From positions 34,038,001 to 34,102,000 of the forward strand of contig CM114271.1 of assembly GCA_050084515.1 (NCBI GenBank): 64,000 nucleotides of DNA, given 5' to 3'. The notes beneath the pieces were generated by a model. It did not search any database. It was not told the DNA's origin and worked only from the letters and a program-made list of their open reading frames with translations. Made by a program: the position numbers and the translations under genes. The first letter of the stretch is position 1; every line of letters starts with the position of its first letter. This document shows positions 8,765-59,031 of this stretch, one piece after another. Source of the DNA: Blasia pusilla. Lineage: Eukaryota.

Positions 8765-10719
8765 TAAAATCTAAGAAGGAAGAGTCAAGAAGCATCATTT
8801 AGTGATGCTAAGAGGTAATCAATTTTGTTTTGCAAATACGCATTGTTGTTCATATGTATTTATTGTCATGCACGCAACTCTATAATTCATTTAACTACGA
8901 ATTCTTTGATAATTGATATACATCTATATGAAAAATTGGGAAACATATCAATAACATTAGTCGTTACTTATGGTGTTTCCCTTCTCAAATAATAATTCCA
9001 ACACTTAAATATGATTTTGATGTGATAGCATACATACAACTATATAAAAAATGTGGTCTTTATATAGAAAATCATAGTACACCCTTCAAACCTTAATACC
9101 ACAAAATTTGGGCATCATCTAAGCTCTTAACTCTCAATGAAAGATGTCAGGGGGCTGGTGGGAATTCGTTGTTTGCAGGTAGGCAAGCGAGTTGCCTTGG
9201 TCGGGAGCTGTGGAGACGTTGGTTGGCGCCGTGTTTTGTCATTTTTCTGTTTGGAAGGATGTGGGCGGAAGCGCTGTCCGTTTTTCTCAGATTTTTCTAG
9301 TGCAGATTGTCGAAGGAGATCAGCAGGGTGTAACGGGAACTAAGCATCATCGGGAATTGGCAAGAGGGTTGGGAAATAGAGAGAAATTAGTTTTTAGGGC
9401 TTGCAGATGCCCGGGGGGCTGTTAAGTAAGGTAATTAGGTCGTAGCCGTACACGGCCCGGGGAGAGGCATCGGAGCCGCGAGAGTCGTATCACCGAAGTC
9501 GCAAGGACCGTGAGTAAGAGCCGGGAGCCAGGAGACGCGCGTCAAGAAGCGCCGTGCGAGGAGGCTGGACAGTCGGAAGGGAAGAGAGAGGGACGGGCCA
9601 CATAGGGCCGCGTGCCCATATAAGATCGCGACTCCATAGGGAGCCGCGCAGGTGTAGTTAAAGGGCTCATAGGGAGCCACGCAGCAAGAAGCTCCGAGGT
9701 TGGAGGGAGCTTGCATAGGGCAACGGACCCGCAAAGAGTTAATGATAGTGTTAAGGGGTAGAGCAGGCGCACAAGGAGGTGCATAGGGCACTGTGTGCGT
9801 GCCAACCGAGAAGCCGGGGGGTCAAACAGTGGCAAACAAAGAGGTTGGGTGTGAGCTGATGGGGAAGCTGCGGGGTGCAAGGTTGGACAGAGGCCTGATA
9901 AGGAGGCACGGAAGCCATGGTGGCCAAGGCCGATTGAGTCTAGAGGAAGGGAGCAATGGAGTTGGAACGGTGGACGTGATGCGTAGGGTGAACATGGTAG
10001 ACGTGCTACGTGGTTGAGAATCGGATGTGGTGAATTTGGATAACGTAGTAGGGGAGATTTTGTGACTTGGTATTTCTGAGCAAGGATCGCGATGTGTGGC
10101 GGGAGTTTGATTACTGTTCATTGAGAGTTTTAGAGATTTGGTGTATTGGCGAGCGTGGATGAGATTTGGGCGTTTTGTGATGGTGAGTGAGATGGGATAT
10201 TCTCATCGATAGTTTTGCGACGAGAGTTTGGGACGAAGTGTTAGAGGTGGAGATGCGTGTCAATGCCAACACGTAGTCTGCATCTATTGGCGGGAGGTTG
10301 GCGTGATGGTCAAGGAGAGTGTTGTGTTGCAGGGGTTGCCACACCACATGGGGGAGTGCATGTTGACGGTGCCGTAGGTTGGAAGGCGTTATCAAGTTAC
10401 CCGTTCGAGTCCCTTTTCCCGCACTTGTCGTGTGTGATTGAGAGTGCTGGGTATCGGGTAGTAGCTGGTGCTAAGTGGGTGCAGTGATGGTGACGAGTGT
10501 AGATTCTTTTCATGTGTAGCATGTTGGTGGATATACGGCGGTTGCCGAGTAGGGGTCGCGTGTATGACCCGAGAGAGTGTCGCTAGGTTAGGTGAGTCAG
10601 TTGGGAGGCTCATGGTGAGCCCGAGTGTTGAGCGTGCGTGAGGCCGGGTATGTCATCATGGGATTGATGTTAGCATAGGTGAGCTAGTGAGGCGTGTGGG
10701 AGACTCTCGATGAGTCTGA

Positions 10720-12190
10720 GTGATTGAGCGGGTGAGACAGGGTTTGTCATCACGGCGTTCTTCCAGGGTTCCGAAGAACTGGGGTAGTGCAAGCAGTTGT
10801 GTGATACGGAGTGGAGTGAGGTACCGAGGGGTTACCAATGAGGAGCTATCACGACATCCATCCGTGGCTGGATCGTCATCACTAGACACTAGGTCTGGTG
10901 ACGAGATCACAGACAGAGACAGTAGTACTTGGCAGGAGATGGACGACATGGGCCATCGGGGCATGCGTCGTTTCTCGGGTGCAGTGGGCACCATCGACTT
11001 AGATGATTTTATCCAGGAGTTTGACACATGGAGCGACTTCCAGGAAATACGGACCTCGACAGGGTTCAACCCTTTCATGGCATGGAAGGGGTTGTTCCAG
11101 CACTTGGAGGGTCCTCCGATATATGACTACATGGAGTTTCGATCACTATATTCAGTAGAGATCGATGCCTGGAGGATGTATTGGGCTCCAGGGTATGTGT
11201 TCACTAGTGGTCGTAAGGCATATGATGGGATTGTGAGAGGAGAGAGACCCACACCATCAGCCCGGAGACTAGATGGAGAGGAGGGCAGTGAGATAGGCGA
11301 TGTGGCACAGATCTCTGGTGGTAGAGGGCCACCCAGCTTCAGCCCCACAGTGGAGTTCTTCCGACAGTTGGGGAAGAGCTACCAGGGCGTACGCACCGAC
11401 AAGCTGAAGAGTCTACAGGATTTTCAGCGACGATCGGGTGAGAGTCTAAGAGAGGCATTCAAACGCATGAGGAGGCTCATCATTGCTACGTTTGGAGTGA
11501 CTGAGGCGCAGTCTGTCTAGTATTGGTACGGGGTTCTGGACCGAGAACTACGGAGGAGAGTCCGAGATGCGGTGCTCATTCACACAGCAAAGCCCATATT
11601 GAAGGTGGTCTTTGAGTTGTCTGAGCGTATTGAGCTCAACATGAGTGAGGAGCAGATAGTGACCGCTGGATTTTCTCGCGAGTCGAGGGGTCCATGAGCG
11701 ACCGTGACCCCACAGGTGCCACAGCGAGCATCAGTACTACGGGAGCGGGCCAGTGTGCCTAAAGAGCAGGGCGGGTACCGTGAGCCTATCAGGCAACGAC
11801 CCGTACCTGCACATGTTGCCCAACAGGGACCGATGTGGTCTTGTTGGACGTGTGGAGGGGCCCATAGGCAAAGAGACTGCCCACAGCATGGGAGAGGACC
11901 ACCAACGCCTCCGATTGCTCAGGAGCCATAGAGGATGGCCCCACGACAGCACCATTGTGACCATTGCCACAGATATGGTCACACTAGGGATAGATGTTTT
12001 GACCGTCGCCGAGGGGCACGTCCAGAGGTAGGCCGAGGGCCTGGGGGCGGTCGTCCTGGAGGAGGTCGGGGAGTTCTTCCTGGACGTGGTGGTAGAGGAC
12101 CACCACCAGCCAGAGGAGATGGAGCATGAGCACCAGAGCTGGCACTTCTCTCATGCATTGATCAGTTGAAGCAGAGGATTGCAGCTTAGG
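10720..12190 (+). pseudogene. gag: gag of copy 1 with two zinc knuckles
   Basis: FSGAVGTIDLDDFIQEFDTW; FQRRSGESLREAFKRM (Gypsy gag QxxxESxxxY/F); CWTCGGAHRQRDC and CDHCHRYGHTRDRC; RGG-rich tail. Stops at 11518, 11695 and 11929. Confidence 0.85.
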
Positions 12191-12912
12191 GAAGGCACGG
12201 AGCTGTGAGCAGCTAGTGTGACTCCAGCTTCAACTTCTTACCCTCACCCGGGTGAGGATCTCGCCAGTATGGGATTTATGTGTAGTGCAGCCCAGGTTGA
12301 GGCAACTACAGTGATGACTCGGGGTGCTGCGAGAAGCATCGAGCCATCGAGAGGTGGAGTTGAGATTGATCGACCAGAGGGGACCGATGGGCGGCAGTCC
12401 AGGGTTCCACACTCGTTCACATTGTCGGAGGCACTACACACACCATCGATGGTGCCTCGACGACCGGCCGGTGCCTCGATTCAGCACCTACGTCGACGTC
12501 ACGAGGAGTTGGAGTGACAACTCCTATGCCGGCTTGAGTGGAGTCAGTGTCGACCATAGTGTTGGAGGTGGCCACCAGAGTGAGTCAGACTCTATTATTT
12601 TCCTTCATAGAGTTGGCGACGTTGGGAGTTGGACCAGCTGAGGTGTTCTAGTTGGCCGCCATGTTGTGTGAGCGTGGAGAGATGACTGCTTCTTGTTCAG
12701 AGGTAGTTGGGGAGGTGGTGGAATTTCCCTCAGAGCCGGTGCTGTGGACGTTCCCCACAGAGTCATGGCATGCGGCGGCGGCGAAGTTGGTAGATATGCC
12801 AGCTCGACCAGCCATAGAGCGAGCAGTGGTGACACCTGGAGTAGTGTTACTGGATAATTGAGCTGGAGTATTTCGTTTGGTTAGTCCGACAGGGACATTA
12901 TACCACCCGTAG

Positions 12913-13240
12913 CGCGTCCTACTTGATTCGGGAGCGCAACCCTTGATGTTAGGGAAGGCGGCGTGTTTAGCGTTGGGGTTATGGAAGGCCGACATTGAGC
13001 CTTGTCCCTTCCAGATACAGACCTCGATTGGGGCCGTATCACCCACTCAGTATATGACTCGACAGGAGATTATTGTCAGAGTCCAGCTAGAGCATACGAT
13101 GGATAGTGCTATGGTGCGCACACGTGTGATTACGACACGAGATGAGTCGTACGATGTGTTGTTGGGGAGTACAGTGTTATATCCCCTAGGATTCATCCTT
13201 GACTTCTGGGAGGAGACCGTTGCTTATCGGCCAGGATGGC
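12913..13240 (+). pseudogene. Aspartic protease of copy 1
   Basis: RVLLDSGAQPLMLG (DSG at 12925-12933) and YDVLLG. Confidence 0.85.
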
Positions 13241-13640
13241 GGTCAGGTGACGGCCGGATGAGTCGATTCTGCATGCGGTTGCGGGGCGAGGTAGTCGATC
13301 TCGAGACGAGTCTGTGACCACGTTGGCAGCTTTCACAGGTAGTGTTAGCTGGCCAGGAGAGTTGTTGGAGGGGAATGCACATGCGGAGGATGTCCCAGTA
13401 GCGGATAGTCCCACAGAGAGACAGGCCATGGCGGGTGTTTCTTCCCATGTTGGCGACGCCTCTTCACCATTGTGGGGTACGACTCGGGAGCTACAGAGGA
13501 GTGCCGACGACCTCGTGAGGCAGTCGTGGAGTCATGTTTTTGTCCCAGAGCAGCGAGAGTCACGTGGCAATCAGGCTCTTGGAGTGGAGACGTTGACCCC
13601 ACTGGATATCACTCCTGTTGTGTGGCAGTGCCCAGAGGAG

Positions 13641-14440
13641 GGTGTTAGGGTGTTAGATCTTTCCGGAGGGATTAGCATCGGATTGGCTGCACTATTGCAG
13701 GCGGGCATACGGGTGCATCAGTACCTTTATGTGGAGAGAGATGAGACTGCGCGGCGAGTATCATTACGTCACGTGGCGAGATTGGTCCAGAGGTATCCTG
13801 AGTTATTGCGGTATCTGCGATGACGGGGATATCAAAGATACGCTACCCGTCGACATCTCTTTGGTGGGGGCGCAGGATCTGGATAGAGTTGGCACCATTC
13901 ATTTGGTGATTGCTGGATGGCCATATTAGGGTCATTTATCAACTGGCCGAGGATTTGGATTGCAGGATCCGAGGCCAGGGATGTTTTGGGAGATGCTATG
14001 AGTATTACGACACTTGCAAGAGAGTCAGATATGTTCTCCAGCGTACATTTTGGAGAACGTGCCGTTGTTGGGAGACACTCGTGCACGTGTGATGACGAGT
14101 GTACATCAGGTGAGGTCTTGGTTGGGACCTGCTGTGTTGTTAGATGCAGCGAGAGTTGGGTCACGTGCCCATCGTCCATGACTGTGGTGGACAAACCTGA
14201 TACCATCAAAGGTACTGAGTCAGCATACAGTGGAGTCCAGAGAGCACCACATCTCACAGTGGATGCTATTTTGGGCTCAAAGCGTCGATCTCAAGTGGTG
14301 ACACGGGATGATAGATCACCGTTGGCCATGGCCAATAGGGTGGGGGAGTTGAGGGCAGCCTTACCTACGTTGGTGAGCCTCCCAGCATCCCATGCCTTTC
14401 GTCAGGGAGGGCCAGGCATGATTTGGGATGAGGTGACTAT
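13641..14440 (+). pseudogene. DNMT3-like C5 cytosine methyltransferase domain in pol of copy 1 (motifs I-VIII)
   Basis: VRVLDLSGGISIGL (motif I), YLYVERD (II), LPVDI (III), IHLVIAGWPY*G (IV, 13921-13929), GLQDPRPGMFWEML (V), YILENV (VI, 14053-14061), SRAHRP*LWWTNL (VIII). Motifs IX-X removed by a deletion. Confidence 0.9.
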
Positions 14441-14446
14441 ATTTGG

Positions 14447-14830
14447 GTTGGGTCTAGGAGCAGTGCTTACTCAAAGGGATGACGAGGAGAGGGAGTTCGT
14501 TGGGGCTTACGTGAGACGATCAAACAACATTGCAGAGGCGAAGTACAGCTCCTACGAGGGAGAGTGCTTGGCTGCAGTGTGGGCCGTGGCACATTTTAGG
14601 TGTTATTTATTCGGCAACCCTTTCACACTTATCATTGATCATGAGCCGTTGAGGTGGTTGATGGAGTCCGATAAGCTTACGGGCAAGCTTGCCAGGTGGG
14701 CTCTATTACTGCAGGAGTATGAGTTTGAGGTGGTTCATAGGCCAGGTCGGCTGAACCAGGATGCGGATGGGTTGAGTCGTAACCCATGTCCGAGTCAGAG
14801 AGACGACAAAGGAGCTCGATGGCACGGAGA
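14447..14830 (+). pseudogene. RNase H of copy 1 (N-terminally truncated)
   Basis: LGLGAVLTQ...KYSSYEGECLAAVWAVAHFRCYLFGNPFTLIIDHEPLRWL...LARWALLLQEYEFEVVHRPGRLNQDADGLSR. Confidence 0.92.
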
Positions 14831-15139
14831 GAGTGATGAGGAGATGGTGCTCGGTTGGCATGCATCTGCCTATCTTTGTTGGTTGACTATGGCAGGTCAA
14901 TCACAAGTGATGACTCTAGTGGTGGGGTTGGATGATGAGTCTTTGGATTCGGAGGTTAGTGAGGAGGCGACAAGTGGTCGTGATATCCATGACGACGTGG
15001 AGGTTGTGGAGTTCTTGCCTTTGGCGTCATTAAAGTATAGTGAGTGCTAGGGGAGCGGGATCGGATCCTACAGAGAGCCAAGAGGTTCAGGTGGGAGGGG
15101 ACTCACATTTTGCGGGTATGGGGAGATGGTAGGATAAGA

Positions 15140-16230
15140 GTGGTACCTCATCCTTCCCAGCGAGCACGTGTGGTGCGACATGCCCATGAGGAGTTGGGAC
15201 ATTTCGGAGTAAAGCGTACTTACAGCTTACTCCAGGTTCAGTATTGGTGGCGTGGCATGCATACTAGGGTACATTAGTTTGTGGCCAGATGTATGGTATG
15301 TGACAGAGTGCGAGCATCCTTCAATGCTCCCACTCTGCAGTTACATCCTTTGCCGATTATGGGTTTATGTTATTGGTGGAGTTTAGACTTTGCGGGACCT
15401 TTGCCATTGACAGGACGTCATCATAGGTACGTGTTGGTCATGGTGGAGCATTTCTTCAAGTGGATAGAGTTGGTGGCACTACTAGACAAGGCGAGCGAGG
15501 GAACAGCTTATGCGCTTCTAGATCGTGTGCTTAGTCACTTTGGTGCACCGGCGGAGGTGTTGACTGACCAGGGTACCGAGTTCAGGGGAGAGTTTCAGAC
15601 CTTGTGTGATCAGGCACTGATAGATCACCGCATCACGTCCAGAGATCATCCTGAGGCGGATGGGTTGGCGGAGAGAGTGGTACAGACGGTGAAGAGAGGA
15701 TTGCCCAAGTATGGCTTGCAGTGGGGACAGTTGAGGGAGTGGGACCTACAGTTGCCATGGTTGGCTATGGGTTATCGCTTTAGTCGGCAGGCATCCTTGG
15801 CGTCATTTTCATCGTACTTTTTGCTCTTTGGGAGAGAGCCAGATTTACTTGCAGCGATTCGACGTGACATGGCGGAGGTGTTAGATCTTGATGATCCAGA
15901 TGTGTAGGTACAAGCATGTTCTCAAAGGGCATAAGTTTTTGGTAGAGTTATGCCTATGGCCTTTGAGAACTTAGCTATTGCCCAACATAAAGATACATTG
16001 AGGTATGCGACCATTCGTGGAGGAGGTTATCGTCCAGGGATTAGGAGGTTTCATCCTGGAGATTACGTATATTTATAGCAGACGGCATCCACGACGCTAG
16101 ATATCACTGCAGGGCGCACGATCCTACGTCTGCGCGAATTATTACCGACCGGAGTCCTCGTGTTGGAGGGACAGGATGGTATGGTTTGGAAGGATCATGT
16201 GCGCAATTGTGCGCCATGTCGTCTTCCGAA
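15140..16230 (+). pseudogene. Integrase of copy 1
   Basis: HHCC motif (HEELGHFG...CMVC) and DDE core (SLDFAGP, VLTDQGTEF, DGLAERVVQTVK). Confidence 0.92.
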
Positions 16231-16282
16231 CGTAGATGGGACGGTGGATCCGAGCTTGGCAGTGGTACCTGCAGGCTTGAGG

Positions 16283-16417
16283 TGTATGTTGTGCGGATCT
16301 ACGAGGGGTGCAGCCACCATGTTGGTATGTGATGGTTGTTTTTGAGGGTGGCATATGTCATGTCTGACCCCCCCTCTTGATGTGGTTCCCACGGGACGAT
16401 GGATGTGTCTGAGATGT
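16283..16417 (+). pseudogene. PHD finger at the pol C-terminus of copy 1
   Basis: CMLC...MLVCDGCF*GWHMSCLTPPLDVVPTGRWMCLRC is a C4HC3 motif with the conserved W; one TGA. Confidence 0.9.
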
Positions 16418-16490
16418 GTATAGGGTAGTAGGTCATGCCAGAGAGATGTGATATTTTCTATCTGGAGTTGGGGGGATCCAACTGCCAGCT

Positions 16491-16501
16491 AGGGGGGCGA
16501 T
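16491..16501 (+). promoter_or_regulatory. Polypurine tract of copy 1
   Basis: AGGGGGGCGAT immediately before TG; copy 2 has AGGGGGACGAT in the same position. Confidence 0.75.
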
Positions 16502-17254
16502 TGTGTGATCTCCATGTATATGTATGAGTTGATTTTTGTACATGTGTGGATCAAACCGTGTGTGGGGAAGATCGGTGTTGTGTGGTGTAGATGTGACCAG
16601 CGATGTATGTTGTGTAGCGATATGTATGCGCACGACAGTTGTCACATCTGAGTAGCTGATAGGCCGAGATCTATCGTGGATAGGGTGTAGGAGCCAGCGG
16701 ACTATCTTGAGTGTAACTTTGTCCCACGGTGTCGGATGAGGTTCAAGATAGGTCCATTGTATCAGGAACGTCGTTTCTGACAACTTTCATGTTGAGGTCT
16801 TTTACAACCGGGTGACTTGTTGACCAGGTTACCCGCCCCTGTTAACCTGTGCGCGCAGGTTACCAAGGGGAGGGCTATTTTTAGGGAAAGAGCCTTTTGG
16901 CTCTTCCCAACCCTATATAAGAGAGGAAGATGGCTTTCCTAAGCCATCTTTCTCATGTTGGGCCGTTAGAGCACCTCCCTTGTATGTGTGTGAACTAGGA
17001 CTAGGGTGCTAGCATCCGGATTCCTTGATAGCACAGGGTGGACGAGGCTCGATATGCCGATGTAGATTGAGGAGTGGAGTTTTAGGCCGGGTGTGCCGTT
17101 TTTACTACTCTATTTTTGTTGTGTGATCTCCATGTATATGTATGAGTTGATTTTTGTACATGTATGGATCGACCCGTGTGTGGGGAAGATCCGTGTTGTG
17201 TGGTGTAGATGTGACCACGGTGTATGTTGTGTAGCGATATGTTTGCGCACGACA
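16502..17254 (+). repeat. 3' LTR of copy 1 with a ~136-bp terminal direct repeat and TATA box
   Basis: Starts TG after the PPT and ends GCGCACGACA. 16501-16637 is repeated at 17119-17254. TATATAA at 16914-16920. Confidence 0.75.
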
Positions 17255-17519: not shown

Positions 17520-17880
17520 AAAAAGTTGACTATCTAACAAGCTTCAATGTAAGCTAATGACATTCCATCACTCATCTCAGTGGTTGATGATTAGTGATGA
17601 TTGTGAGGGGATTCTCGAACAAATAACATTAAAAATTGGCCGCTACCCACATTGCAACTCAACACTTCCCCTCATATCAATTATACTTTATCTCCTCAAT
17701 ATTGTTTGAAGGACGTGGATATGCCCCTACAAACTCCTTCCCCTCATTATCTCTTTGAGTGAGCTTCGATACTATATCCAAAATACTCCGTTCCATACGT
17801 ACTTGAAATGGACGACCACGCATACGTCTCTTCATAATAGGCAAGGATGTTAACTTGTCTTTTAGCTCATGAAATAGTCT
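17520..17880 (-). mobile_element. Older Gypsy RT-linker/RNase H fragment related to the same family
   Basis: LKDKLTSLPIMKRRMRGRPFQV...LTQRDNEGKEFVGAY..SNN..KYN*YEGKC...CYLFENPLTIITNHQPL, homologous to copy 2 LKDRLTSVPILRRPIRGRPF. Confidence 0.8.
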
Positions 17881-18189: not shown

Positions 18190-20390
18190 TGAAGATAGAT
18201 GGATACAACTTAAGGTGGATCATGGGTTGTAATTATCGGAATGTTAGATATGAAGAAAGGAAAATGGAAGATTCTCAAGAGTTTGATATAGTAATTATTT
18301 ATGCACTTGGTATTGATCAGTAATATGAGAAGGTTAAAAACCAGTGATACATGTGTAGGGAGGACATTAGATCCATCAAAGGTGAAGGATATGGAGAGTT
18401 TTGTATTGAAGTCACCACATATATCATTTGGGAAGGAGACATAATTTTTGATGACCAAGAGGGATCTTACTTGGAAAATCATCAGATTTTTTGTAAGGAA
18501 AGGAGACAAGAAAATTAGTGGCCAAGAGTGATTCACATCAATCTTTCATAGAGAACCATCAGGTTTGCTCAATCTATGAAAAGATATACCATAATCGTTT
18601 GCCAACAAGAATATCAAGGTATCTTGGACATGGAACCCAAGGGTGTTGTGTGTGGAAGAGACATATGTAGGAATAAAAATGAAATATCCAGAGAGTTATG
18701 TATATAGGATGGATGTTGAACGAAAGAGACAAAAAAATAAACCTTTTAGATTAGACTATCTAGAGGGACTTTACATATACAAGTCACTAGATGTAGCCAT
18801 AAAATCATAGATTCCACATTATGGGGAAGATTAAAACTTATTATATGCAATATTTGGGCATACTTGGGCTACAAAAATCCCATGAAACATATCTGTGAGC
18901 TGAAGAGGTGTGTGTGACCATGCTAGAGGAAGAACATAACTAAGATATGCCATGTAAGTTCTATAATTGGAGAAGCAATTGGAATCAAACGCACGTGATT
19001 ATGGATGTAGTTCAAATAAATTTGTGCCTTTTCTTGGCTTATGTAATAGACATAATATAAGAAAGCAAATAAATTGAGTTTTTTTAGAAAATATCTTTGA
19101 TGTGCTTTTGCATAATATTCCAAAATAATTACATTACAAAATTGTCTCAATGTTGTTCAATATAACCATTTTATAATGTTCCATGCCAATATTGTATTAC
19201 ATAGAAAAACTAGATAGACGGGGACTCCCTACTAGGAGACTTGCTATGTATTATGATATATTTGAAGGTATTTTTTATGTACTTTTGCAAAATATTCCAA
19301 AACCATTATGCAAAAAAACTTTCTCAATGTTGTTCAATATTGGAATTGTATTATATTCCGCGCCAATATTGTATTCAATAGAGAATCCGAACATATGGGG
19401 GACTCCGTACTTGGAGACTTGCTACGCACTGTGAGTAGTGAAGGTCTAAGACTTGAATAAGTTGTTATTAGATAATTTTATCATAGGAAGAAGATAAAAC
19501 ATGTATGATATGTACTCCTTTTACATAATTTTTTTGCAATCGTATGGATGATTACATTAGATTGACGAGTTCGTATCCATTAAATATATAGAAAAAGGTG
19601 CTACATAATACTAGGGTTTATAGCTAAGAACACTCAAGACAACCAATGCTCCACAATCATTTCATCATGGTTCAAGATGATATTTCTTGTTCATAGAGAA
19701 GACAAAGTAGAGGAACTCCATCATTTTCAGAGGATGATATGCCACATCCATATTCACCTTGTGTGTAGAGGCATCGATTGTTCTAGTCTCCTCTAAATAA
19801 TGTAGTTATATTGACCGTCCAAACAAGATTGACATGTAGAATATGCCCTATTAACATTGAGAAATGTGAAGCACGCATCCAAGAAGAAGTTGTCAAAATT
19901 CTTGGTAGAATTCCAATTGCAAATAACATAAAGCTTGAGAGTGTTGCTTATAACGATGGTATTTTCCCCTTCTTCAAACACTGTATTGATGAATTTATTA
20001 CGAATTTAAAGAGGTAGGCAAGATTACATCTGGGTCCAGAGGGATCCTTTGTAGCTCCCATTTTAGGAGGTTTGATAATCTGCTACGTATGTGTATAGGT
20101 CAGACTTTCCTTTCGTACATGGCATATTGTGAGGAAAGGCCACTTACTAGGTAACTTGTGGAGTATTTAAGAACCTTGATGGTTGTTGATCACATTTAGT
20201 TTAATAGGATTAAACGAGATGTGTCACTAGTGAGGATGTTCCCTTTTGTGAGACCTTTCCTTTAGATAAATACTCTCGGTTCATATGGAGAGGACCTTAT
20301 GTTATAGTTTGTGAGGTTGAGTACATTATGTACTAGAAGTCCTTTATTACTTATTGCAAATGGTAAGATGTGCATAAATATTACGAGTGA
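18190..20390 (+). mobile_element. Highly decayed Gypsy pol remnant (different family)
   Basis: Protease-like YIILGR (~18420), RT-like KLESVAYNDGIFPFFKHCIDE (~19930) and integrase-tail WRGPYVI (~20286), in Gypsy order. Confidence 0.45.
19112..19425. repeat. Two-copy degenerate tandem repeat (~180-bp period)
   Basis: TCTCAATGTTGTTCAATAT...GCCAATATTGTATT...GGGGACTCC...GGAGACTTGCTA occurs twice. Confidence 0.75.
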
Positions 20391-38863: not shown

Positions 38864-41800
38864 ATGGCACTGACCTGCAGGCAGCTTGTGTTTCCTGAGC
38901 TGCGGGAGATTTCCGTGAGGGATGCGTGTGGCGGTCTGGAGAATAATAGCAATGCTAATGGACGGGCGCCCGCGCTGTCTCCCAGGCTTCGCTCTTTCCG
39001 GGGATTGCACAGAGACAAGGATCTGATGCCCGCTTCTCCTCGTTGGCCTTCCGCTTATGTGGTGCGTTTTGGTGCACGATTCTCGCTCGCATTTGCAATT
39101 TTGCGTCGTTTGGGCCGACGTGGGAGCCCCGGCTCATTTCGTCGCCCGACCTGCGTCCAGATGTCGTCCAATTCTCTAGGTATGTTGACGTGTAGTGCAA
39201 GTAATGTGAGGGTGTATTCTACAGCGCCTGTACAATTCACTGGGAGGATTTGCCATTGCGTCTCAACGGATCTCGAGCGCCGTCTGGAGTCGGATAGCCT
39301 ACGGCGTGCAGGCTGGGAAATGTCTTGTTATCTCATTGCGGTCCTTGGATGGATTGTGATATTATGTCGGTACAACCAGTCTTATGTTGGTTAATGGTCG
39401 TTCCGTACGGTGTCCTGTCAATTGGTTCTTTGACAAATGCGTGGCTGCGGGTCCTCCCCCGTGTGCTTCATGTAGTTCGATGAGTCTCTGGTGGAGGCTC
39501 AGCGTCGGCCAGTAGCGAGCTTTAATTCCCTTAGTGTGCAAATGTCCGCATTCATAAAATACGGACTCGTGGTTGGTCGGCAAGCATATTCTCGAAAGTT
39601 AACAACTCCTATTTTATGATTTTCCAAAGTTCCGTCTGTTCTGCTATCATGACTCATCTTCCCACGGTGCAGGTAAATCAATCTTCAAGCAACAAGTTCT
39701 GTGTGTGGGGCTCCAGGTGTCAGAGCTCTAGAAGTCGCAGCATTCGGTCTGAGGCTGTGGCCATCACTTCATCCAAGTGAGTGCTTTTGAGCTGAGCACA
39801 GCATCTGAACTTCAATCCATGAACCACTAGTGTGCAAAGGCCTGCCGCTTATCTGCAGGATTATGAGCCCGGTATATGAGTCCTTCCAGTGTAAGAACTG
39901 CTCATTGTTGCACTTGTCCGGCCGTGACGAGCTCTCAATGTGTTCACCCGTCTCCCAATCAAACAGCAGTCGCCAAAACATTAATTCTGTACTTGGAACC
40001 AACATTCTCTCAGTTTTGACATGCCATGACTGCTCCAGAGCTTTGTTCCTCTTGTCACTCCGATAGTTTTTACACAAACTTTCTTCCTACTGAGCTTGAT
40101 ACTACTTGAGCCTAGAAATTGGCTCTCTGATTTTGACCCTTGCATAGAGCACTCTCCTGAAGAAAGAGATGGTGGAACTGTGGTGGCAGTGAGGCTGAAA
40201 CCCTTGAGGGTGTGGATTGGGATAAATTTGGATTCGGGATTCGCCCAACTGATGCCATGTATATCATGAAGTGTGGGCAAGACGGTGAATGGAGTAAGGG
40301 GGAGCTGATTCCTTTCGGTAATCTGGAGATGAGTCCCTCTGCTGCTGTTCTTAACTATGGCCAGGTAATGTTTGCTTGTAAATGTTTTCCTCGTGATAAT
40401 TTCTTATGGATACATGTGTTGATGTGCTCAGGGAAAGACAAGAGGTTCATTCATTGAGTTCTTGGATTAGATATTTCAAGGACTAGATATTGATGTTCAT
40501 TTACTGAGATGCTTGGAAAGCTTTCCCCAAAGTCTTTCAAAATGACCTGCGAATTCACTCTCATGTGTGCATTTTCGGTGGATTTGATGTTTATCATTTA
40601 CTATGGTTGTTTTGCTGAGAGGTATTCTAGAAGATAGTGAATAACTAGGAATTCCTGATCCAATAGTTTGCGGAATGTCCTACGGTGTTATTTGATTTCA
40701 CTTGAAATCAGCGTTAGAAAATGGTGAGCACATTTACCACAGAAATCAGGTGATTGAAGCCTTTGGCAGGATTGGGATACACAGCAACATAGAACTGCAT
40801 AGACTTTACTTATGTAGAGCAAGACCCACAAGAATGACTTGGAAAAACTTAATGGAACTACTCACATTAAGATCAACTACATGTCAGGCGCAATCGACTG
40901 TTTTCCCTAGTCATTGCTCTTATGTAGGGCAATACCCACAAGGATGACTTGGAAAAACTTGATGGAACTATTCACATTGATATCAACTACATATCAGGCA
41001 CTGTCACTCGCGTTCCCTGGTCAATCCTCTTCCCATCTATCACTATTGAAAATTAACCATTTGAGCAGTCACTTGTGTCAGCTGTTACAATCTGCTGACT
41101 CCACCAATCAGACCAGCATATTACAAGGACGCGATCTCCTTTTGGTTGACAGTGCATGTTTGGACTACTCTCATGCTTTTCCATCCTTGTTTTCATTGTG
41201 ATAGGGATTGTTTGAAGGTCTTAAGGCCTACAGGACAGCGGATGGACGCATTCTCCTGTTTAGGCCTGAAGAGAATGCCCTTCGTATGATCTCTGGGGCA
41301 GATAGGCTAAGCATGCCTGAAGTTCCTGTGAATGCATTCGTAAATGCCGTCAAGCAAACTGTTCTTGCAAACAAGCGCTGGGTACGTAACTCATGCTATA
41401 TCCTCTAAGTTTCTGGGCTTCTGGAGGTACGTGTACAAGTTTTAAGACTTTCCTGGCTCCTTGAATGTCTTTCTGTACTGGAACAAAGTTCTTGTCAAAC
41501 ACTAGTTACTGATGCTTGACATTGAAATGACTTTTTGCAGATTCCTCCTCCTGGCAAGGGCTCCTTGTACATCCGTCCTTTGCTGCTAGGTTCAGGAGCT
41601 GTTCTAGGTTTAGCTCCAGCCCCTGAATACACGTTCCTTATCTATGTATCGCCTGTGGGTAATTACTTCAAGGTGAGATTTGCAGCTTTCTCAAATTCTT
41701 GCAAGTTTAGCTCATATCATATGAAAGGATGAAAAAGTCGCCCTCCAAAATAAATGTCAGATACGAGGAACATGGATCTGAAATCAAAACGTCCTATTGC

Positions 41801-51773: not shown

Positions 51774-52225
51774 TGTCGTGCGCATACACATCGCTACACA
51801 ACATACATCGTTGTCACCGAACACACACACAGACATGCACGATCCCATGCTAACTCATGGCATCCAAACAATGAGACAAGAAGTACTAAAATATCTCCAA
51901 TAAAATAAGATCTAATCTATCTCACAACACCATAGTTCTCACATGTGTGCACTCTTACATGTCTCTCTCAATGTCAAACCAAACCCACTCTCCTAATGAG
52001 AGGCTTGGGTTACACACACAAGGCAAGCAAGACCATAACTCCTCCGCCTCATGCCAAGAGGTTCAACAAAGAGAGAATGAGCTCTCAAGCTCTCTCTCCT
52101 TGAGGTATATCCCTCCCCTCTCCCAAACTCTCTCCATGGTAACCGAACACACACACCAACACGCACGATCCCATGCTAACTCATGGCATCCAAACAACGA
52201 GACAAGAAGTACTAAAATATCTCCA
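51774..52225 (-). repeat. 3' LTR of copy 2 with an internal 86-bp direct repeat
   Basis: TG after the PPT; ends GCGCACGACA like copy 1. 52142-52227 is repeated at 51816-51901. Confidence 0.75.
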
Positions 52226-52419
52226 ATCGTCCCCCTAATTGGTGGTTATGTCCCCCTAACTCCAGATAGCCCTTTATCCCTACCTACCACGACATACATT
52301 TCTATGACGCTAAGAGCATAAAGGCCAGGTGCTCATGTGGCCCCATCGTTAGTCGCCTTCCTGTCATCCATGTCATAAAAAAAGTCGAAATCGAAACCTA
52401 CCTAGTATCTCCTCTATGT

Positions 52420-52550
52420 ACATTTGGGACACATCCATCCCGAGGAACCCTAGTGAGAGGTGGCGTCAGACATGCCATATGCCAACCTCTCGAACATCCA
52501 TCACAGACTAGCATCGTGGCCGTACCACGAGCAAAATCACACAACATACA
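52420..52550 (-). pseudogene. PHD finger of copy 2
   Basis: CMLCDFARGTATMLVCDGCSRGWHMACLTPPLTRVPR, then after a frameshift GWMCPKC. Confidence 0.9.
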
Positions 52551-52599
52551 ACGCAAGCCTGCAGGAACTACTGCTAAGTTTGGATCTACTATACCATCA

Positions 52600-53720
52600 A
52601 TGTTAGGAAGATGATATGACACACAATTACGCACATGGTCTTTCCATACCATACCATCGCGTCCCTCAAACAAGAGAACACCAGATGGCAAAATGTCCCG
52701 CACTCTCAAGACAGTGCGCCCTGTAGTCACATCCAACGTCATCGGTGCCTTCTACTATAAGTAAACATATCTCCCTGATGAAACCTCCAGATAGTTGGTC
52801 GATAACCACCACCCGAATAGCCGCATACCTCAACATATCCCAATGCTGCGCAATCGCCAAGTTCTCGAACGCCATGGGCATCACTCTCCAAAACAACTCA
52901 GCCCTCTAAGAATATGCTCGCATCCATACATCTGGGTCGTCAAGGTCCAACACCTCACCAGTATCTTGAGGAATGGCCGGAGGTAAATCTGGCCAAGAGC
53001 CAGAGAGCCAGATTATGGCCGAGAGCCAGATTTACCTCCCGCCATAAAGTAGCAAGTACGATGAAAAAGACGCTAAGGATGCCTGCCTGCTGAATCTGTA
53101 TCCCATTGCCAACCACGGAAACCGGAGGTCCCAATCTCCTAGGTGAACTCTCTGCAAGCCATACTTGCATAAATCCCTCTTCAGTGTCTGCACAACTCTC
53201 TCCGCTAATCCATCCGCCTCAGGATGATCTCGCGAAGTCGTGCGGTGGTCGATCAGCGCCTGGAACTCACCTCGAAACTCGGTACCTTGGTCTGTCAACA
53301 CCTTAGATGGTGCACCGTAATGACTTGGCACTCGATCTAGGAAGGCATATGCTACTCCCTCACTCACTTTGTTAAGCAATGCAACCAACTCGATCCACTT
53401 CGAGAAGTGCTCGATCATCACCAACACATAACGACTGTGACGCTCCGTCAAAGGCAAAGGTCCTGCAAAATCCAAACTCCATCTATACCCTAAGCCATGA
53501 TCGGTAATGGATGCAAATGTGGAGTCGGAGAATTGAACGATGCTCGGACCCATTCACACACCATGCACCTGGTAACAAACTGCTGAAGGTCAGTCTGCAT
53601 GCCTCGCCACCAATAATGAATCTAGAGCAAGCTATACGTCCGCTTCACCCCAAAATGACCAAACTCCTCGTGGGCATGCTGCACTAGTCGTGCTCTTTGC
53701 AAAGGATGCGGCACTACGCG
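52600..53720 (-). pseudogene. Integrase of copy 2
   Basis: HEEFGHFG, SLDFAGP, VLTDQGTEF, DGLAERVVQTLK. Confidence 0.92.
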
Positions 53721-54029
53721 TACTGTGCGTTCCTCCCAAACCCTCAAAACATGTGTCCCCTCCCAACGGAACCATCTGGCCCACTGTAGGATCCGATCCA
53801 ACTCTCTAGCACCCACTGTGCTCGCGACGCTGCCAGTACGAAGGTACTCCAAGACTACTACATCATCATGAATATCTCGGCCACTTGTCGTCTTCTCACT
53901 GACCTCGGGATGCAAGGACTCTCCGCTAGACCTCGCCATCAAAGTCTCCACACTCTGGCTCTCCATATCCAACATGCCTAAATAGGCTGACGAGTGTCAT
54001 CTTGGCATTGACTCCTCATCACTCTCTCC

Positions 54030-54494
54030 ATGCCATCGAGCTTCAGTCGCATCTTGTTGACTTGGGCATGGGTTACGACTCAACCCATCTGCATCTTGGT
54101 TGAGCATCCCAGGTCTATGTACCACCTGAAAATCATACTCTTGCAGCAACAGAGCCCATCATGCAAGCTTCCCTGTAAGCGTGTCGGACTCCATCAACCA
54201 CTTCAGTGGTTGATGATAAGTGATGATGGTAAAGGGGTTGCCGAATAAGTAACACTTGAAATGCGCGATAGTCCACACCGCAGCCAAGAACTCACCCTCA
54301 TACGAGCTGTACTTTGCCTCTGCAACGTTGTTCAAGCGGCTAGCATAAGCCACCACGAACTCTCTACCCTCATCATCATGTTGGGTGAGCACTGCTCCAA
54401 GCCCCAACATGCTCCAATCTGTGTGCAAGTGGAATGGACGCCCCCTGATCGGTCTCCTCAAGATGGGCACGGACGTCAACCTGTCCTTGAGCAA
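54030..54494 (-). pseudogene. RNase H of copy 2
   Basis: FHLHTDWSMLGLGAVL...YSSYEGEFLAAVW...DADGLSR. Confidence 0.92.
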
Positions 54495-54673
54495 CTAAAA
54501 TGCTCACTCCTGCTCATTCCCCCACTGCCACTTGTGATCCACCTTGGTCAGCAAGGTTAGTGGCTTTGCAATGGAACTGAATCCATTCACGTACCGCCGA
54601 TAGAAGTTCGCAAATCCCATGAATGCGCGAACACGACTTACATCTGTAGGGCGTAGAATGCGTGAGATAGCCT

Positions 54674-55460
54674 CTACCTTCTTCTGCTGAACACCAAGGC
54701 CCCCTGGGTATATATTGTATGACCCAAGTACTCAATCTGGTCGTAGAAGAACTTGCGCTTGCCTGGATGTAGCTTCAGCCCATGTAATTGCAATCGTCGA
54801 AACACCTCCTCAAGATTTCGCTCATGCTCCTCAATCGTGGCGCTAAAGACTACAATGTCATCAATATAACACTTACCAAAATCCAGACCAGCCAAGATCC
54901 TATCCATGACCCTCTGAAACTCAGCCGGGGTGTTCTTTAACCCAAATGGTAAGAACCACCACTGGTACAAACAATCCTTCCCGCGAGGATCGATGCCCCA
55001 AAATACCGTCTTCTGCCTATCCTCCAATCTGATAGGGAGCTGATGGTATCCCGCTCGCAAATCCAATGAAGTGAAGACCTTTGCGCGACCAATCGCATCA
55101 AAGATCTCCTCAAGGGTGGGCATGGCATACCTATTGGACTTTGTCTGCCGATTGATAGGTCGGTAATCCCCACACATCCGCATATCCGTCTAGTTGCCAT
55201 GTACATCCTTCTTGGCGGGCATGATAGTGGCAGATGCATACTCCCCATGTGACATCTCCACTAGTCGTACTCCGACCAAGTCCTGGCTCCTACTCTGAAT
55301 TAGAGCCCTCTCCATATCAATGTACATGTAGGATTGTCAAAAGATCGGCGTATCACTCGACAACTGAATGCGGATCCCGAGTCCCTTTAGCGTACCCAAA
55401 TCCTCCATGCTAAATGCAAAGTAGCTCCTATAACTCATGAGGAACTGATGTATCAAGTGC
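54674..55460 (-). pseudogene. Reverse transcriptase of copy 2
   Basis: RMCGDYRPIN, FTSLDLRAGYHQL, LPFGLKNTPAEFQ, YIDD (54857-54868), IEYLGH. Confidence 0.95.
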
Positions 55461-55859
55461 CGCTCTCCTCTTGTCAACTTAGGGCCCATATTTGGCTCCC
55501 AAATCTCCATCGCGACTACGATAGGACTCTCCGGCGCGGATATCGGTGGTTGCTATGGTGCAACCCCGTCTCGAACGACAAAACTTGGCCGCTCTAGTGC
55601 AGCCAACTGCAAACTCTGATCTCCTCCACATGCCGTGCCCGGAACGACGCTCGATGTTGTGGCTATCATCTCCTAGCGTACCTGCAAAACATCCCAAGAA
55701 CTCCAAGGGTGTCTCTCCCGATCTCCCTTGGTGTGTAGATCTCCTCGAGTCTTGCCCCTAGCCACTACCTCCACCGTCCGGTAGGCATGGGGCTCACCAA
55801 CGCAACCGCTGTAATCTGTCGCGATCTCATACGGCGCTGCTCAGCCACTCCCAAGTTGA

Positions 55860-56690
55860 GGATCCATGTCAAGCAGTTCATGTGCATTTCCTGGCCTAAG
55901 GCATGGCGTCGTGCTGCCTCTGACACTAACGCTACTGCCGTCACTCCTGTGGGAAATCCCATCGCTCGCTCTCTCTCGTCGGCGTTGGGCTCCACCAACC
56001 GTTGAACCTGGTCATCGCAAACCAAGCCAGGACCGGCCTCCTTGTATGCATAGGAGGCGGGAAAAATCACAAACGTGGGCAAGGTTGCTCGCGGCCTGCC
56101 TACCCTGTTGACCACAGTCAACGGTGGACAATCATTGTGCCTCATTGCCTGTGGTTGATGACCTGGATCGAGAATGGAATCCACTAACAAATGGGAGGGG
56201 CGCTCCACTCTCGCATACGCCCTCCGTAACACCGCATGGGACACCAAATTGGTCCACCATAGACGCGGGCGATGGGCTCTAGAACCTACACTCGCTGTAT
56301 CCAAGAACACTACTGAGCCGATCCAGGCACGCATCTGATGAGCGCTTGTCACCACCCGTGACCTGGAGTCTCCTAAGATCGGCACATTTTCTAGAATGTA
56401 GGTTGGAGAACGAGACTGATGCTCCTGCAACTACCGTAAGACCCTCAACATCTCCCAAAACAACCTCGACCGAGTGTTAGCCAACCCGCTGCCTCGTCCA
56501 ACACTCGATTGGCCCTGATAAGGCCAACCAGCAATGACCATATCAATGGTTCCTACCGGCTCTAAGTCATGCGCCCCCAACAACGAAATATCCCTCGATA
56601 GGGAACTCTGGTACCCCTGTACTGCGGACGCAGATAATAAGTCGGGAAAACATAGGTGTAATTGGGCCATATGTCGTAGTGAGACGCGGT
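55860..56690 (-). pseudogene. DNMT3-like C5 cytosine methyltransferase domain in pol of copy 2 (motifs III-X)
   Basis: RDISLL (III), IDMVIAGWPYQG (IV), SRLFWEML (V), YILENV (VI, 56383-56391), SRAHRPRLWWTNL (VIII), ERERAMGFP (IX), RRHALGQ (X). Motifs I-II deleted. Confidence 0.9.
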
Positions 56691-56969
56691 CTGCACGTGC
56701 TCATCTGCCAATCGTCAAAGCTTCTCAGTCGAGCCCCACAACGGCACCTCTCTTCCACGGAATGATGCGGCTACCAGAACACTCCTCTCCATAGAAATGT
56801 CAGCAAGGGGAGTATCCTCTGCATGGACATGTCCTTCAATCAAATCACTAGGCCAAGTGATGGCACTGCTAAATGATGCTAAGGTCGCCACCTCTCCTGG
56901 CCGTCGCTCGATCACTGCACCTGTGAATCGAACGGGTAATGAGATAAGACGCCCATCACTTGATTGCCA

Positions 56970-57295
56970 TCCTGGTCTGTAGGACGTTGACTCCTCCCAA
57001 TAATCCAGGGAAAACCCCATCGGGTATAACACTGCTCCACCAACCAAGACGTCATAGGACTTTGCATCAGTCACTATCGCCTTGGCTCGCACTAGAGACT
57101 CATATGTAGGATGTCCCGGGCGAATCCTCACCACGACCTCCTGTCGGGTGATATACCTCGTGGTACTCTCTCAACCCAAGGATGTATGTATCCGGAATGG
57201 ACAACGCTCCACATCGGCTCTCGTCAAGCCCAATCCTCTGAATGACGCTTTCCCCAACATCAGGGGTTGCGCTCGTGAATCCAACAAGACGCGCT
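56970..57295 (-). pseudogene. Aspartic protease of copy 2
   Basis: RVLLDSRAQPLMLG (DSG changed to DSR) and YDVLVGG. Confidence 0.85.
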
Positions 57296-57439
57296 GCGGA
57301 CTAAAAGCTCTACCTCCGAGACTCACCAACTGGAAGACCTCTCCTCGGTTATCTAGCAAACAACACTAGGAGAAGCCATGGCCTCCATCTGGGCAACCCC
57401 GCACATCCAACCATGATCCTCCATATCTCAAGCTGCTCC

Positions 57440-59031
57440 CTATGATGTCGATGCCACGGATCCGGCATCGGGTAATCTCAATGCCATAGCGGCAATCTGC
57501 TCCTGTATCTGAGCTGCCATCCTAGCCTCACGTCTGGCATCTCCCTGGATGCGTCTTGGTGGTAGGACTCTACCTCCTCCATGAGCAGCTCCACCACCAT
57601 GTTGGGCAACTCTTGCTCCTCGTTTCCCAACGGGACCACCTTGTGCACGATCTCTAGGCCTACTTGGACCGGCTACTCGCTCTGGTGCCCTCTCTAGCCC
57701 TCGGTCCGGACGTAACTCAGGATGTAAACTGAAACACTTGGCGCGTGTATGACCATACCTCTGACAATAGTCATATTGATCACCTCGTGGTGCATCACCA
57801 TCTCCTCCTGCATGCTGAGGCACACGTCCATGACCCTGACGAGTGCAATCGCGCTGATGATGGGCTCCACCACATGACCAACAAGTAATAGTAGGCGGCT
57901 GCTGGTCAGCTGCATATGAAGGCGCAGGTCTCTGTGACACGGCCTCTCGGTATCCTCCCTGAGCTCGTGGTGCCACAATCGACCTATCTTGGAGTCCACG
58001 TCGCTGCACAGGTGGTGCAGACAATCGCGACTGCTCTCGCCTAGAACCCATGGTGGCTACGCTCTCCTCCGCCATGTTGCGCTCAATGTTCTCAGCAGTC
58101 CTAAAAATATCTCTCAACGTAGGGGAGGTGTTCATAAGAAGCATCCCCTCCCGCACCCGTGTCCACAGGATCCGGTCCAGCATCGCGTACCATGAGTGGA
58201 TAGCCTAGGCTCTGTCACCCCTTGAGTGACGTTGATCAACCAACACAAGCGAGTGTAAGCCTCACGCAAACTCTCACCCGGGCGCCTCTGGAAGTCGTGG
58301 ATGCTACGCAATTTCTCTGGCCGTACCCCCTGGTAGCTCGTCCTCAACTCAACAAAGAACTCAATCACAGGGCTGAACCTGGGACAAACCCGACTAGACG
58401 GTGCAACTGCTCCCGTGCGAGTGACCCCTCCTAAAATGTCACCAGTGGAAGAGGAAGTAGCCTCTCCTGAATCCTCCTCCTCATGTAGGAACGGCTCCGT
58501 CCATGACACATAATGTGGGTCATAGTAGAGCCTCCACGCCTCGATCTCACGTGCATATCTCTGAGAGAACTCATGGTTATCGTCTATGGGCTCCCCCTCT
58601 AAATGCTGGAATATACTGTTCCATGCTGTAAACGGGTTGAACTCTCTAGAGTTCTTGGCTTGTTGGGAGTCTCACCAACTCCTAAACTCTGCTATGAAAT
58701 CGTGCAACTCAATCGTACCTACTGCACCTGAAAACCTACGCGGTCCTCTACCCCAGTCGTCCATCTCGTACGCTCAACTGGTAGGACCACTCACAATGTG
58801 TGGCGATGTGCTCACAAACTCCTCTACACCCTCCCCCTCGTCTGACGATGACATAGAAGGAGGTCGAGGTGGTCCCTCACGTGGAGACCCTCGGAACCTC
58901 GCGCCACTCCGCGTAAAACCTCTAGAGCTACTCTCAGGTTCACCACCTTGCCTCTCAAAGTCCCGAACGGATGCCGTGATGACCCTCGTACCTCTTACCC
59001 GATCACTCTCACGTGGCGAGTAATCCCTCAA
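57440..59031 (-). pseudogene. gag: gag of copy 2
   Basis: FQRRPGESLREAYTRL, CWSCGGAHHQRDC, YDYCQRYGHTRAKC; colinear with copy 1 gag. Confidence 0.85.

Follow-up and report, generated by a model that had tools for sequence, protein, structure and literature searches.

Chromoviruses such as MAGGY and Tf1 are Gypsy retrotransposons that bear a chromodomain (Gao et al. 2008, as cited in PMC6673714 and 10.1101/2021.11.30.470311). They are presented there with a small histone-tail reader directly behind the GPY/F module of the integrase, at the end of pol, and this reader is proposed to tether integration to a chromatin state. We analyzed a stretch of 64,000 nucleotides from Blasia pusilla (GenBank assembly GCA_050084515.1, contig CM114271.1, positions 34,038,001 to 34,102,000, forward strand), here called the window and numbered from its first letter, which holds two copies of a Gypsy-DNMT3 long terminal repeat (LTR) retrotransposon. 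The integrase of this element ends in a PHD finger, which in the first copy lies at 16283-16417 on the plus strand. The window family thus shares the chromoviral layout with another reader; judged by its sequence, its expected ligand would be the unmodified N-terminus of histone H3, not H3 methylated at lysine 9 (H3K9me).

KnitGypsy-Dnmt3 (de Mendoza et al. 2018, PMC5890265) resembles the window element in having a Gypsy pol with a DNMT3-like domain in its polyprotein. A DIRS-like repeat layout is described for it in that paper, and it follows the order A-coding-B-A-B, as does the second window copy; it differs in that the window element comes from another host and its copies are decayed. A PHD finger is mentioned nowhere in the text and supplements of that paper that were searched, figures being outside the scope. 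EpiLTRs (2026 preprint, 10.64898/2026.05.21.726589) are also LTR retrotransposons that unite a chromatin reader with DNA methyltransferases. Those elements, from Cymbomonas and Euglena, pair their chromodomain with two methylases, a DAM adenine methylase and a DNA methyltransferase (DNMT) related to DNMT4, whereas the window family combines a PHD finger with a DNMT3-like enzyme; a PHD finger is not mentioned in that preprint.

Neither PHD fingers in transposons nor Gypsy-DNMT3 elements are new in themselves. CR1 non-LTR elements reportedly carry a PHD finger (Kapitonov & Jurka 2003), as reportedly does REM1 of Chlamydomonas (Perez-Alegre 2005). Published examples appear in PMC6673714, PMC8557442, PMC9940879, PMC2836005 and 10.1101/2021.11.30.470311, with other Chlamydomonas elements in PMC8557442 and PMC9940879 and PHD-transposon fusions at large in 10.1101/2021.11.30.470311. 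Ginger1-9_HM (PMC2836005) has its finger at the C-terminus of a Gypsy-integrase-like transposase, as in the window family, but Ginger1 is another class of element in which the PHD accompanies a Ulp1 protease. The figure legend for Gypsy-7a_cRei places the PHD between RNase H and integrase, unlike the arrangement here. In the available parts of these sources none of the other PHD-bearing transposons is described together with a DNMT, and we found no description of a PHD finger on a Gypsy-DNMT3 integrase, or of its pairing with the DNMT, in the literature covered (figures, Repbase, a thesis and subscription journals lay outside the scope). The apparent novelty, from the sequences compared below, is that pairing, which is nearly constant, and the place of the finger on the integrase.

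The ADD domain of animal DNMT3A, DNMT3B and DNMT3L is a zinc module that reads H3 unmethylated at lysine 4 (H3K4me0) and is fused to the catalytic domain, which it regulates. The window family resembles these proteins in associating a zinc reader module with a DNMT3-type methyltransferase. Its reader differs in being a canonical single PHD finger that is carried by the integrase, at a distance from the DNMT, and that probably ends up in a different processing product.

A PHD finger at the end of the integrase

We scanned three frames of both element regions against Pfam, with stop codons read as X, and searched them by tblastn with the domains of an intact relative, P0173. In copy 1 the translation of 16079-16423 (+) is an integrase C-terminus that ends in AGLRCMLCGSTRGAATMLVCDGCF, a stop codon, GWHMSCLTPPLDVVPTGRWMCLRCV and a second stop. 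The stretch 16283-16417 (+) is a full-length C4HC3 PHD finger at the end of a retrotransposon integrase. It reads CMLCGSTRGAATMLVCDGCF, an internal TGA at 16343-16345, and GWHMSCLTPPLDVVPTGRWMCLRCV; with the TGA taken as X, it matched the Pfam PHD family PF00628 over model positions 1-47 of 47 at 39.2 bits (E 6.9e-10; curated cut-off 24 bits). A Pfam search of this kind had been proposed in a preliminary description of the window, made from the sequence alone, and its result agrees with the C4HC3 finger claimed there. The outermost zinc-ligand cysteines coincide with 16283 and 16417, the ligands are spaced C-x2-C-x11-C-x2-C-x4-H-x2-C-x15-C-x2-C, and the pol stop codon, TAG at 16421-16423 (+), follows one residue beyond the last cysteine. 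The finger shares its reading frame with the H2C2 and core domains of the integrase.

A second finger was said to end pol in the other copy, and we found it at the coordinates proposed, on the minus strand. It runs from 52550 down to 52417 and reads CMLCDFARGTATMLVCDGCSRGWHMACLTPPLTRVPRDG as far as a one-base frameshift near 52440, after which it continues as GWMCPKCT to the pol stop at 52416-52414, giving a feature of 52414-52550 (-) by translation and Pfam. It is unbroken as far as the sixth zinc ligand, and its first 35 uninterrupted positions scored 30.9 bits against PF00628 by themselves. The motifs G-W-H and CDGC occur in the window copies, with VPTGRW in copy 1 and VPRDG, then GW past the frameshift, in copy 2. 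The copies are 73-78% identical to each other.

The finger is set behind the GPY/F (SH3-like) module of the integrase by a linker of about 25 residues, which is the place of the chromodomain in chromoviruses, as had been suggested. Module and linker together occupy 16031-16282 (+) in copy 1, where tblastn gave 60% identity to the P0173 C-terminus and a model of the homologous stretch of another relative, L007, predicts a beta-barrel; in copy 2 they lie at 52551-52775 (-) by tblastn. Scans of each copy in three frames, and of relatives, gave no Chromo family at E <= 0.01, and we rejected a chromodomain at this place, which the PHD occupies. Both window copies are dead. Between 15140 and 16420 the integrase-PHD frame of copy 1 holds five in-frame stops, at 15275, 15905, 15932, 16076 and 16343.

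We then searched for homologues with the copy 1 integrase-PHD stretch and analyzed the best 120 of 153 matches, proteins of 749-2135 residues. Named sources among them were Klebsormidium nitens, Closterium, Coleochaete scutata, Calypogeia fissa, Volvox, Pleodorina, Tetrabaena, Chlamydomonas eustigma and Tetraselmis, and the best named match was that of the liverwort Calypogeia fissa, with 87% identity over part of the query. A finger followed the integrase in 104 of these 120 proteins, as C4HC3 in 98 and as C4HC2H in 6; of the other 16, 13 end before the position of the finger and 3 are long enough but have no canonical finger. PF00628 scores in relatives were 31-50 bits. It had been stated that intact copies ending pol before the PHD would speak against such a finger, but the proteins nearest the window, intact relatives among them, do not stop short of it: they end 2-14 residues past it. 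P0173 is a single open reading frame (ORF) of 2811 residues with the order gag, protease (PR), DNMT, reverse transcriptase (RT), RNase H (RH), integrase (IN) and PHD, and it ends 3 residues past the finger; the second ORF of L007 (1047 residues) has a terminal PHD at 40.6 bits, and P0003, a Coleochaete scutata transcript, holds a complete ORF that likewise finishes with the finger. A phmmer search of 1.84 billion representatives, with the intact L007 C-terminus as query, gave 984 matches at E <= 1e-10 and 48 at E <= 1e-30, with the integrase C-terminal module and the finger present as one continuous stretch in about 127 of the best 150.

An integrase tree (FastTree, 121 rows, PHD columns excluded) split these proteins into two halves at 95% local support. 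In the first half the window copy groups with P0002 and the Coleochaete transcript, and P0073, P0084, P0094 and P0104 from Klebsormidium nitens fall here too; this half places the DNMT ahead of RT and finishes with the PHD. In the second half, where the names are volvocine, the DNMT separates RNase H from integrase, and the PHD is followed by a tail of 100-450 residues. The C4HC2H variant, in which the last cysteine is replaced by histidine (CPRH, CKLH, CDKH), is confined to one subclade with 100% local support (P0037, P0043, P0056, P0057, P0060 and P0076). Closterium and its kin (P0109, P0111 and P0117-P0120) have no PHD, although at least P0118 and P0119 retain the DNMT. Its sister, with 98% local support, is a PHD-bearing Klebsormidium group, a placement that points to the finger having been lost.

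The finger could in principle be foreign to the element, whether a captured host exon, a product of chimeric assembly or a chance reading frame, and the broken state of both window copies is all that speaks for this. A chance match is contradicted by its presence in both copies and in most of the long homologues. It also lies in the same frame and position in the two copies, recurs at that site in 41 of the 42 metagenome loci with enough downstream DNA (described below), and is conserved within uninterrupted ORFs. We consider a foreign origin extremely improbable, and rejected chance, exon capture and chimeric assembly on the grounds of the same frame and position in two copies and hundreds of relatives.

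Class of the finger and its likely ligand

We compared the window finger, and a profile of 28 intact fingers drawn from both halves of the tree, with solved structures. The best matches in the PDB were the PHD1 fingers of Lid, KDM5A and KDM5B, along with fingers of ATXR5, WSTF, KMT2C/D, PHF12, DPF2/3, PHF21A (BHC80), BAZ2A/B, KAT6A/B, ORC1b, UHRF1/2, AIRE and CHD4. Fingers of ING, BPTF and TAF3 were absent from the best 60 of the 138 PDB matches of the 28-finger profile. Where PDB titles do not themselves name unmodified H3, we take these matches to be readers of the unmodified H3 tail.

An AlphaFold (AF2) model of the intact L007 C-terminus had a mean predicted local distance difference test (pLDDT) score of 73.9; in it an SH3-like barrel is joined to a PHD fold by a linker of low confidence, and the blocks of the finger score 72-86. 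An interleaved two-zinc PHD fold is thus predicted for the finger. By Foldseek the L007 finger alone superposed on BHC80 (2puy) at a root-mean-square deviation of 1.1-1.3 Å and on ATXR5 (5vab) at 1.5 Å, and it also matched BAZ2A, ORC1b and UHRF1 entries titled with unmodified H3 peptides. Sequence and predicted fold both point to readers of the unmodified H3 tail as its nearest solved relatives. The likeness to fingers of the KDM5-PHD1, BAZ and UHRF1 type noted in the preliminary description held for the window sequence, the 28-finger profile and the predicted fold alike.

Across the 28 intact fingers the 8 zinc ligands and P42 are invariant, mean column identity is 54%, and L21, D23, G28, L34, P36, L38 and W46 are at least 90% conserved. 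We take D23 to be the aspartate that binds H3R2, G28 to mark the lack of the tryptophan of a K4me3 cage, and W46 to belong to the loop that anchors H3 A1. The residue two positions before the zinc histidine is glycine in at least 90% of the fingers.

The reading we favour, with moderate confidence and by analogy with the chromodomain, is that the finger of active family members tethers the integrase to nucleosomes in which H3K4 is unmethylated. The finger would bind the N-terminal tail of H3 with a preference for tails that lack K4 methylation, and this binding would hold the complex of integrase and cDNA on nucleosomes outside active promoters, a role like that of the H3K9me-binding chromodomain in chromoviruses. 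The DNMT3-like domain, which comes without an ADD or PWWP reader and is probably a separate processing product, may then methylate DNA in the same chromatin. We prefer tethering of the integrase because the finger is always fused to that enzyme, wherever the DNMT sits.

Several points weigh against this proposal. Its account of function rests on homology to solved readers, and the window copies themselves are dead, with 5 stops in the integrase-PHD part of copy 1, a frameshift in the finger of copy 2 and no RT in copy 1. The integrase tree has no outgroup. The argument from glycine two positions ahead of the zinc histidine draws on a general rule by which K4me3 readers have an aromatic residue there. 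Of the 12 fingers from the volvocine half, 11 have 2-4 acidic residues in the loop after the first zinc pair, as KDM5/Lid fingers do, whereas the 8 fingers nearest the window have one acidic residue there among basic or neutral ones (EKKGAAT and DHRRGYA, for example), and the K4 pocket of the window's subgroup may therefore differ.

This unlike loop is also one of the arguments for a different ligand, whether nucleic acid, a protein of the host or some other mark on histones, or for a finger whose main part in the integrase C-terminus is structural, as a zinc module. The class is broad enough for this, in that DPF3 and KAT6A (H3K14 acylation), CHD4 (H3K9me3) and UHRF1 (H3R2) are all among the matches, and by Foldseek the whole L007 model, with its SH3-like barrel and PHD, aligned with the Tudor-PHD cassettes of PHF1, MTF2 and UHRF1. 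Set against it are the nearest solved fingers, which are overwhelmingly binders of the H3 N-terminus, and the aspartate of CDxC and the PxGxW loop, at least 90% conserved family-wide, which we take to form the surface for H3 A1 and R2. We regard another ligand or a structural role as quite unlikely, and less so a role in guiding the DNMT, which we weigh below.

Pairing of the finger with a DNA methyltransferase

Precomputed Pfam lists proved too insensitive a measure of the DNMT and were set aside: they listed it in 10 of 120 proteins, and phmmer with the family's own DNMT found it in the majority of those whose length allowed a judgement. By that search 26 full-length proteins had the order RT-RH-DNMT-IN-PHD plus tail, 18 N-truncated proteins had the DNMT just before the integrase, and 11 had it before RT. 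Two PHD-bearing proteins that were long enough to judge had no DNMT (P0054 and P0065), nor did the truncated P0104. Another 27 proteins start about 100 residues before RT, which left the DNMT undecidable in them. Many database proteins start at this point because an in-frame stop separates the ORFs, as it does in L007 and L009, where a single stop (L007:5083-5085 and L009:4661-4663) lies between a gag-PR-DNMT ORF and an RT-RH-IN-PHD ORF. This stop looks like a readthrough type of gag-pol arrangement in which the DNMT belongs to the gag side; no stop stands between DNMT and RT in P0173.

To resolve the 27 undecidable proteins we took 80 related metagenome loci, which come from a few sample series, are in many cases decayed and count as copies rather than independent lineages, a further point against the tethering proposal. 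The DNMT was present upstream of RT in all 54 loci with at least 1700 bases of upstream sequence, and 9 of the other 26 showed part of it. Together with the PHD counts given above, this left 30 loci that could be judged on both sides, and all 30 had both the DNMT and the PHD. Co-occurrence of the two across relatives had been proposed as a check, and it is borne out in these loci.

The catalytic motifs of the DNMT are conserved in both layouts. The nearest solved structures to the intact L007 enzyme are DNMT3A, DNMT3B and DNMT3C (E 6e-8), ahead of M.HaeIII and M.HhaI, and Pfam found no PWWP or ADD family in the intact polyproteins at E <= 0.01. In the window copies motif IV reads GWPY followed by a stop in copy 1 (13903-13932 +) and GWPYQG in copy 2 (about 56529-56500 -) in place of GWPCQ; the catalytic cysteine is thus tyrosine in both. 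It is kept in all 10 metagenome loci with motif IV and in all tabulated DNMT-bearing relatives. The shared GWPY could reflect common ancestry of an inactive DNMT or parallel decay. The preliminary description had suggested that one element may encode both a chromatin reader and a DNA methylation writer. A DNMT3-like domain is indeed part of the element and is paired with the finger in the loci, but the tyrosine in both window copies means that reader plus writer applies to the family and not to these copies.

The same pairing speaks for the main rival to tethering, in which the PHD serves the element's DNMT as an ADD-like module that reads H3K4me0 and directs or licenses methylation of silent chromatin or of the new copy. 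The DNMT lies directly N-terminal to IN-PHD in the 26 full-length volvocine-half proteins, and the enzyme is DNMT3-like by its PDB matches while having no ADD or PWWP of its own. Every architecture, however, joins the finger to the C-terminus of the integrase, directly behind that enzyme whether the DNMT precedes RT or follows RNase H. In the window's half RT, RNase H and integrase come between DNMT and finger, and in the intact L007 and L009 the in-frame stop puts the two on separate ORFs. The domains are also separable, as P0118 and P0119 (DNMT without PHD) and P0054 and P0065 (PHD without DNMT) illustrate. We think it unlikely that the finger works chiefly for the DNMT; such a role is compatible with tethering of the integrase.

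Outside the window, in the volvocine half (P0028-P0115), motifs and predicted fold suggest that the tail of 250-600 residues behind the PHD is made up of a Tudor-like barrel followed by a methyltransferase of class I that uses S-adenosylmethionine (SAM). Motif I reads DPFAGSGT and motif IV SPPF or SPWF. An AF2 model of the tail had a pLDDT of 83.9, and its best Foldseek matches were type I and type IIG N6-adenine DNA methylases, M.TaqI and Erm/KsgA (E 1e-5 to 1e-4). Pfam at E <= 5 gave sub-threshold matches only (MethyltransfD12 at 0.06 and 0.35, N6_N4_Mtase at 0.28, PTM_DIR17_Tudor at 3e-4 to 0.23), and an ESM Atlas lead at 0.86 was likewise sub-threshold. With a SAM methyltransferase in the tail and the DNMT between RNase H and integrase, these elements would carry four chromatin-related modules.

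A wider reading, which we offer tentatively and consider possible rather than probable, is that a coupled chromatin toolkit is older than the split between the two main branches of a large Gypsy lineage in the green line and has stayed with that lineage, namely an integrase-fused PHD reader of the H3K4me0 type and a DNMT3-like writer. The branch with streptophyte names would have the order PR-DNMT-RT-RH-IN-PHD, and the branch with volvocine names RT-RH-DNMT-IN-PHD with the Tudor-like barrel and the SAM methyltransferase. Such elements would choose unmarked chromatin by means of the PHD and then write DNA methylation there, the PHD standing in for the ADD that is absent from the captured DNMT3.

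The window copies, their host and the meaning of the family

The element is a Gypsy-DNMT3 LTR retrotransposon with the order gag (with a CCHC knuckle), aspartic protease, C5 DNA methyltransferase, RT, RNase H, integrase H2C2 and core, GPY/F and PHD. Copy 1 extends over about 11239-16423 (+) and has lost its RT. Upstream of the finger it comprises a gag remnant at 11239-12030 with a CCHC zinc knuckle at 11956-11997, an aspartic protease at 12868-13227 with LLDSGA at 12919-12936 (both by tblastn), a DNMT3-like C5-methyltransferase remnant at 13837-14423 (tblastn to the P0173 DNMT and a motif scan), RNase H at 14448-14762 (PF17917, 88.9 bits; tblastn), and integrase H2C2 and catalytic core at 15137-15826 (PF17921, 55.4 bits; PF00665, 39.9 bits; tblastn), all on the plus strand. 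At about 14205-14448 (+) the DNMT remnant is joined directly to RNase H. RT is deleted completely, as is the C-terminal part of the DNMT, and the Pfam scan of three frames gave no RVT_1 match in this copy.

Copy 2 extends from about 60552 down to 51813 on the minus strand and keeps all domains, in shifting frames. Its protease lies at 56979-57338 (tblastn), followed in coding order by a DNMT3-like domain between protease and RT at 55852-56649 (PF00145, 27.7 bits; tblastn), RT at 54692-55240 with YIDD at 54868-54857 (RVT_1, 95.5 bits; tblastn), RNase H at 54093-54467, and integrase H2C2 and core at 53047-53720 (the last two by Pfam and tblastn), all minus.

By blastn self-comparison copy 2 has split repeats in the DIRS-like order A-coding-B-A-B, the A pair and the B pair each being 94% identical. 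The 5' repeat A lies at 60472-60552 (-), matching 51914-51994, and the 3' block B-A-B at 51813-52227 (-), with B at 52227-52139, A at 51994-51914 and B at 51901-51813. Behind copy 1 the same comparison found two B repeats, at 16501-16637 and 17119-17254 (+), which are 95% identical, and no 5' A repeat.

A fragment of a third copy, inverted and holding part of RNase H, lies at 17533-17866 (-), 1.1 kb behind copy 1 (tblastn and self-comparison). In the window and in L027, L035, L039, L040, L069 and L071 the family also occurs inverted a few kb or less from a copy, as fragments or as a second copy. Such clustering fits insertion into silent, transposon-rich DNA, although the observation is anecdotal.

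The element bodies (10700-16420 and 52420-58800) have a GC content of 0.52-0.53 against 0.36-0.38 in the flanks, and their CpG observed/expected ratio is 0.71-0.74 in the copies versus 0.38-0.61 in the flanks. The coding strand of the element has a strong excess of purines and of G (G 0.33 versus C 0.21). Outside the element are two short tandem direct repeats, at 19073-19400 (units of about 151-177 nucleotides) and 40809-41028 (110 nucleotides).

We mapped three RNA-seq runs from the host species along 13800-16700 at a likeness of at least 85%. Each run gave 1097-1340 reads, with a depth of 12-28 over the PHD-coding bins, and the first mate of most reads fell on the minus strand, which is sense RNA if the libraries are of the usual stranded type. 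Most reads were less than 95% alike and therefore come from related copies. At 3 of the 5 positions where copy 1 has an in-frame stop, the majority of RNA reads and of DNA contig depth has a different letter, so that these codons are sense in those copies. The element family is abundant and transcribed in the host, and the window locus is a decayed member of it.

Chromodomain-guided integration is the textbook case of chromatin reading by a retrotransposon, and the likely ligand of the reader described here, unmethylated H3K4, differs from that of the chromodomain. P0173, the L007 ORFs and the Coleochaete transcript P0003 are intact relatives that allow a direct test of this prediction, and the elements offer compact reader-integrase and reader-methylase modules for study. 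Because they carry a DNMT3-like enzyme without an ADD, they are also a natural system for asking whether a mobile element chooses and writes its own epigenetic state. A second widespread reader at the same spot on the integrase would make that position a general docking site for targeting modules.

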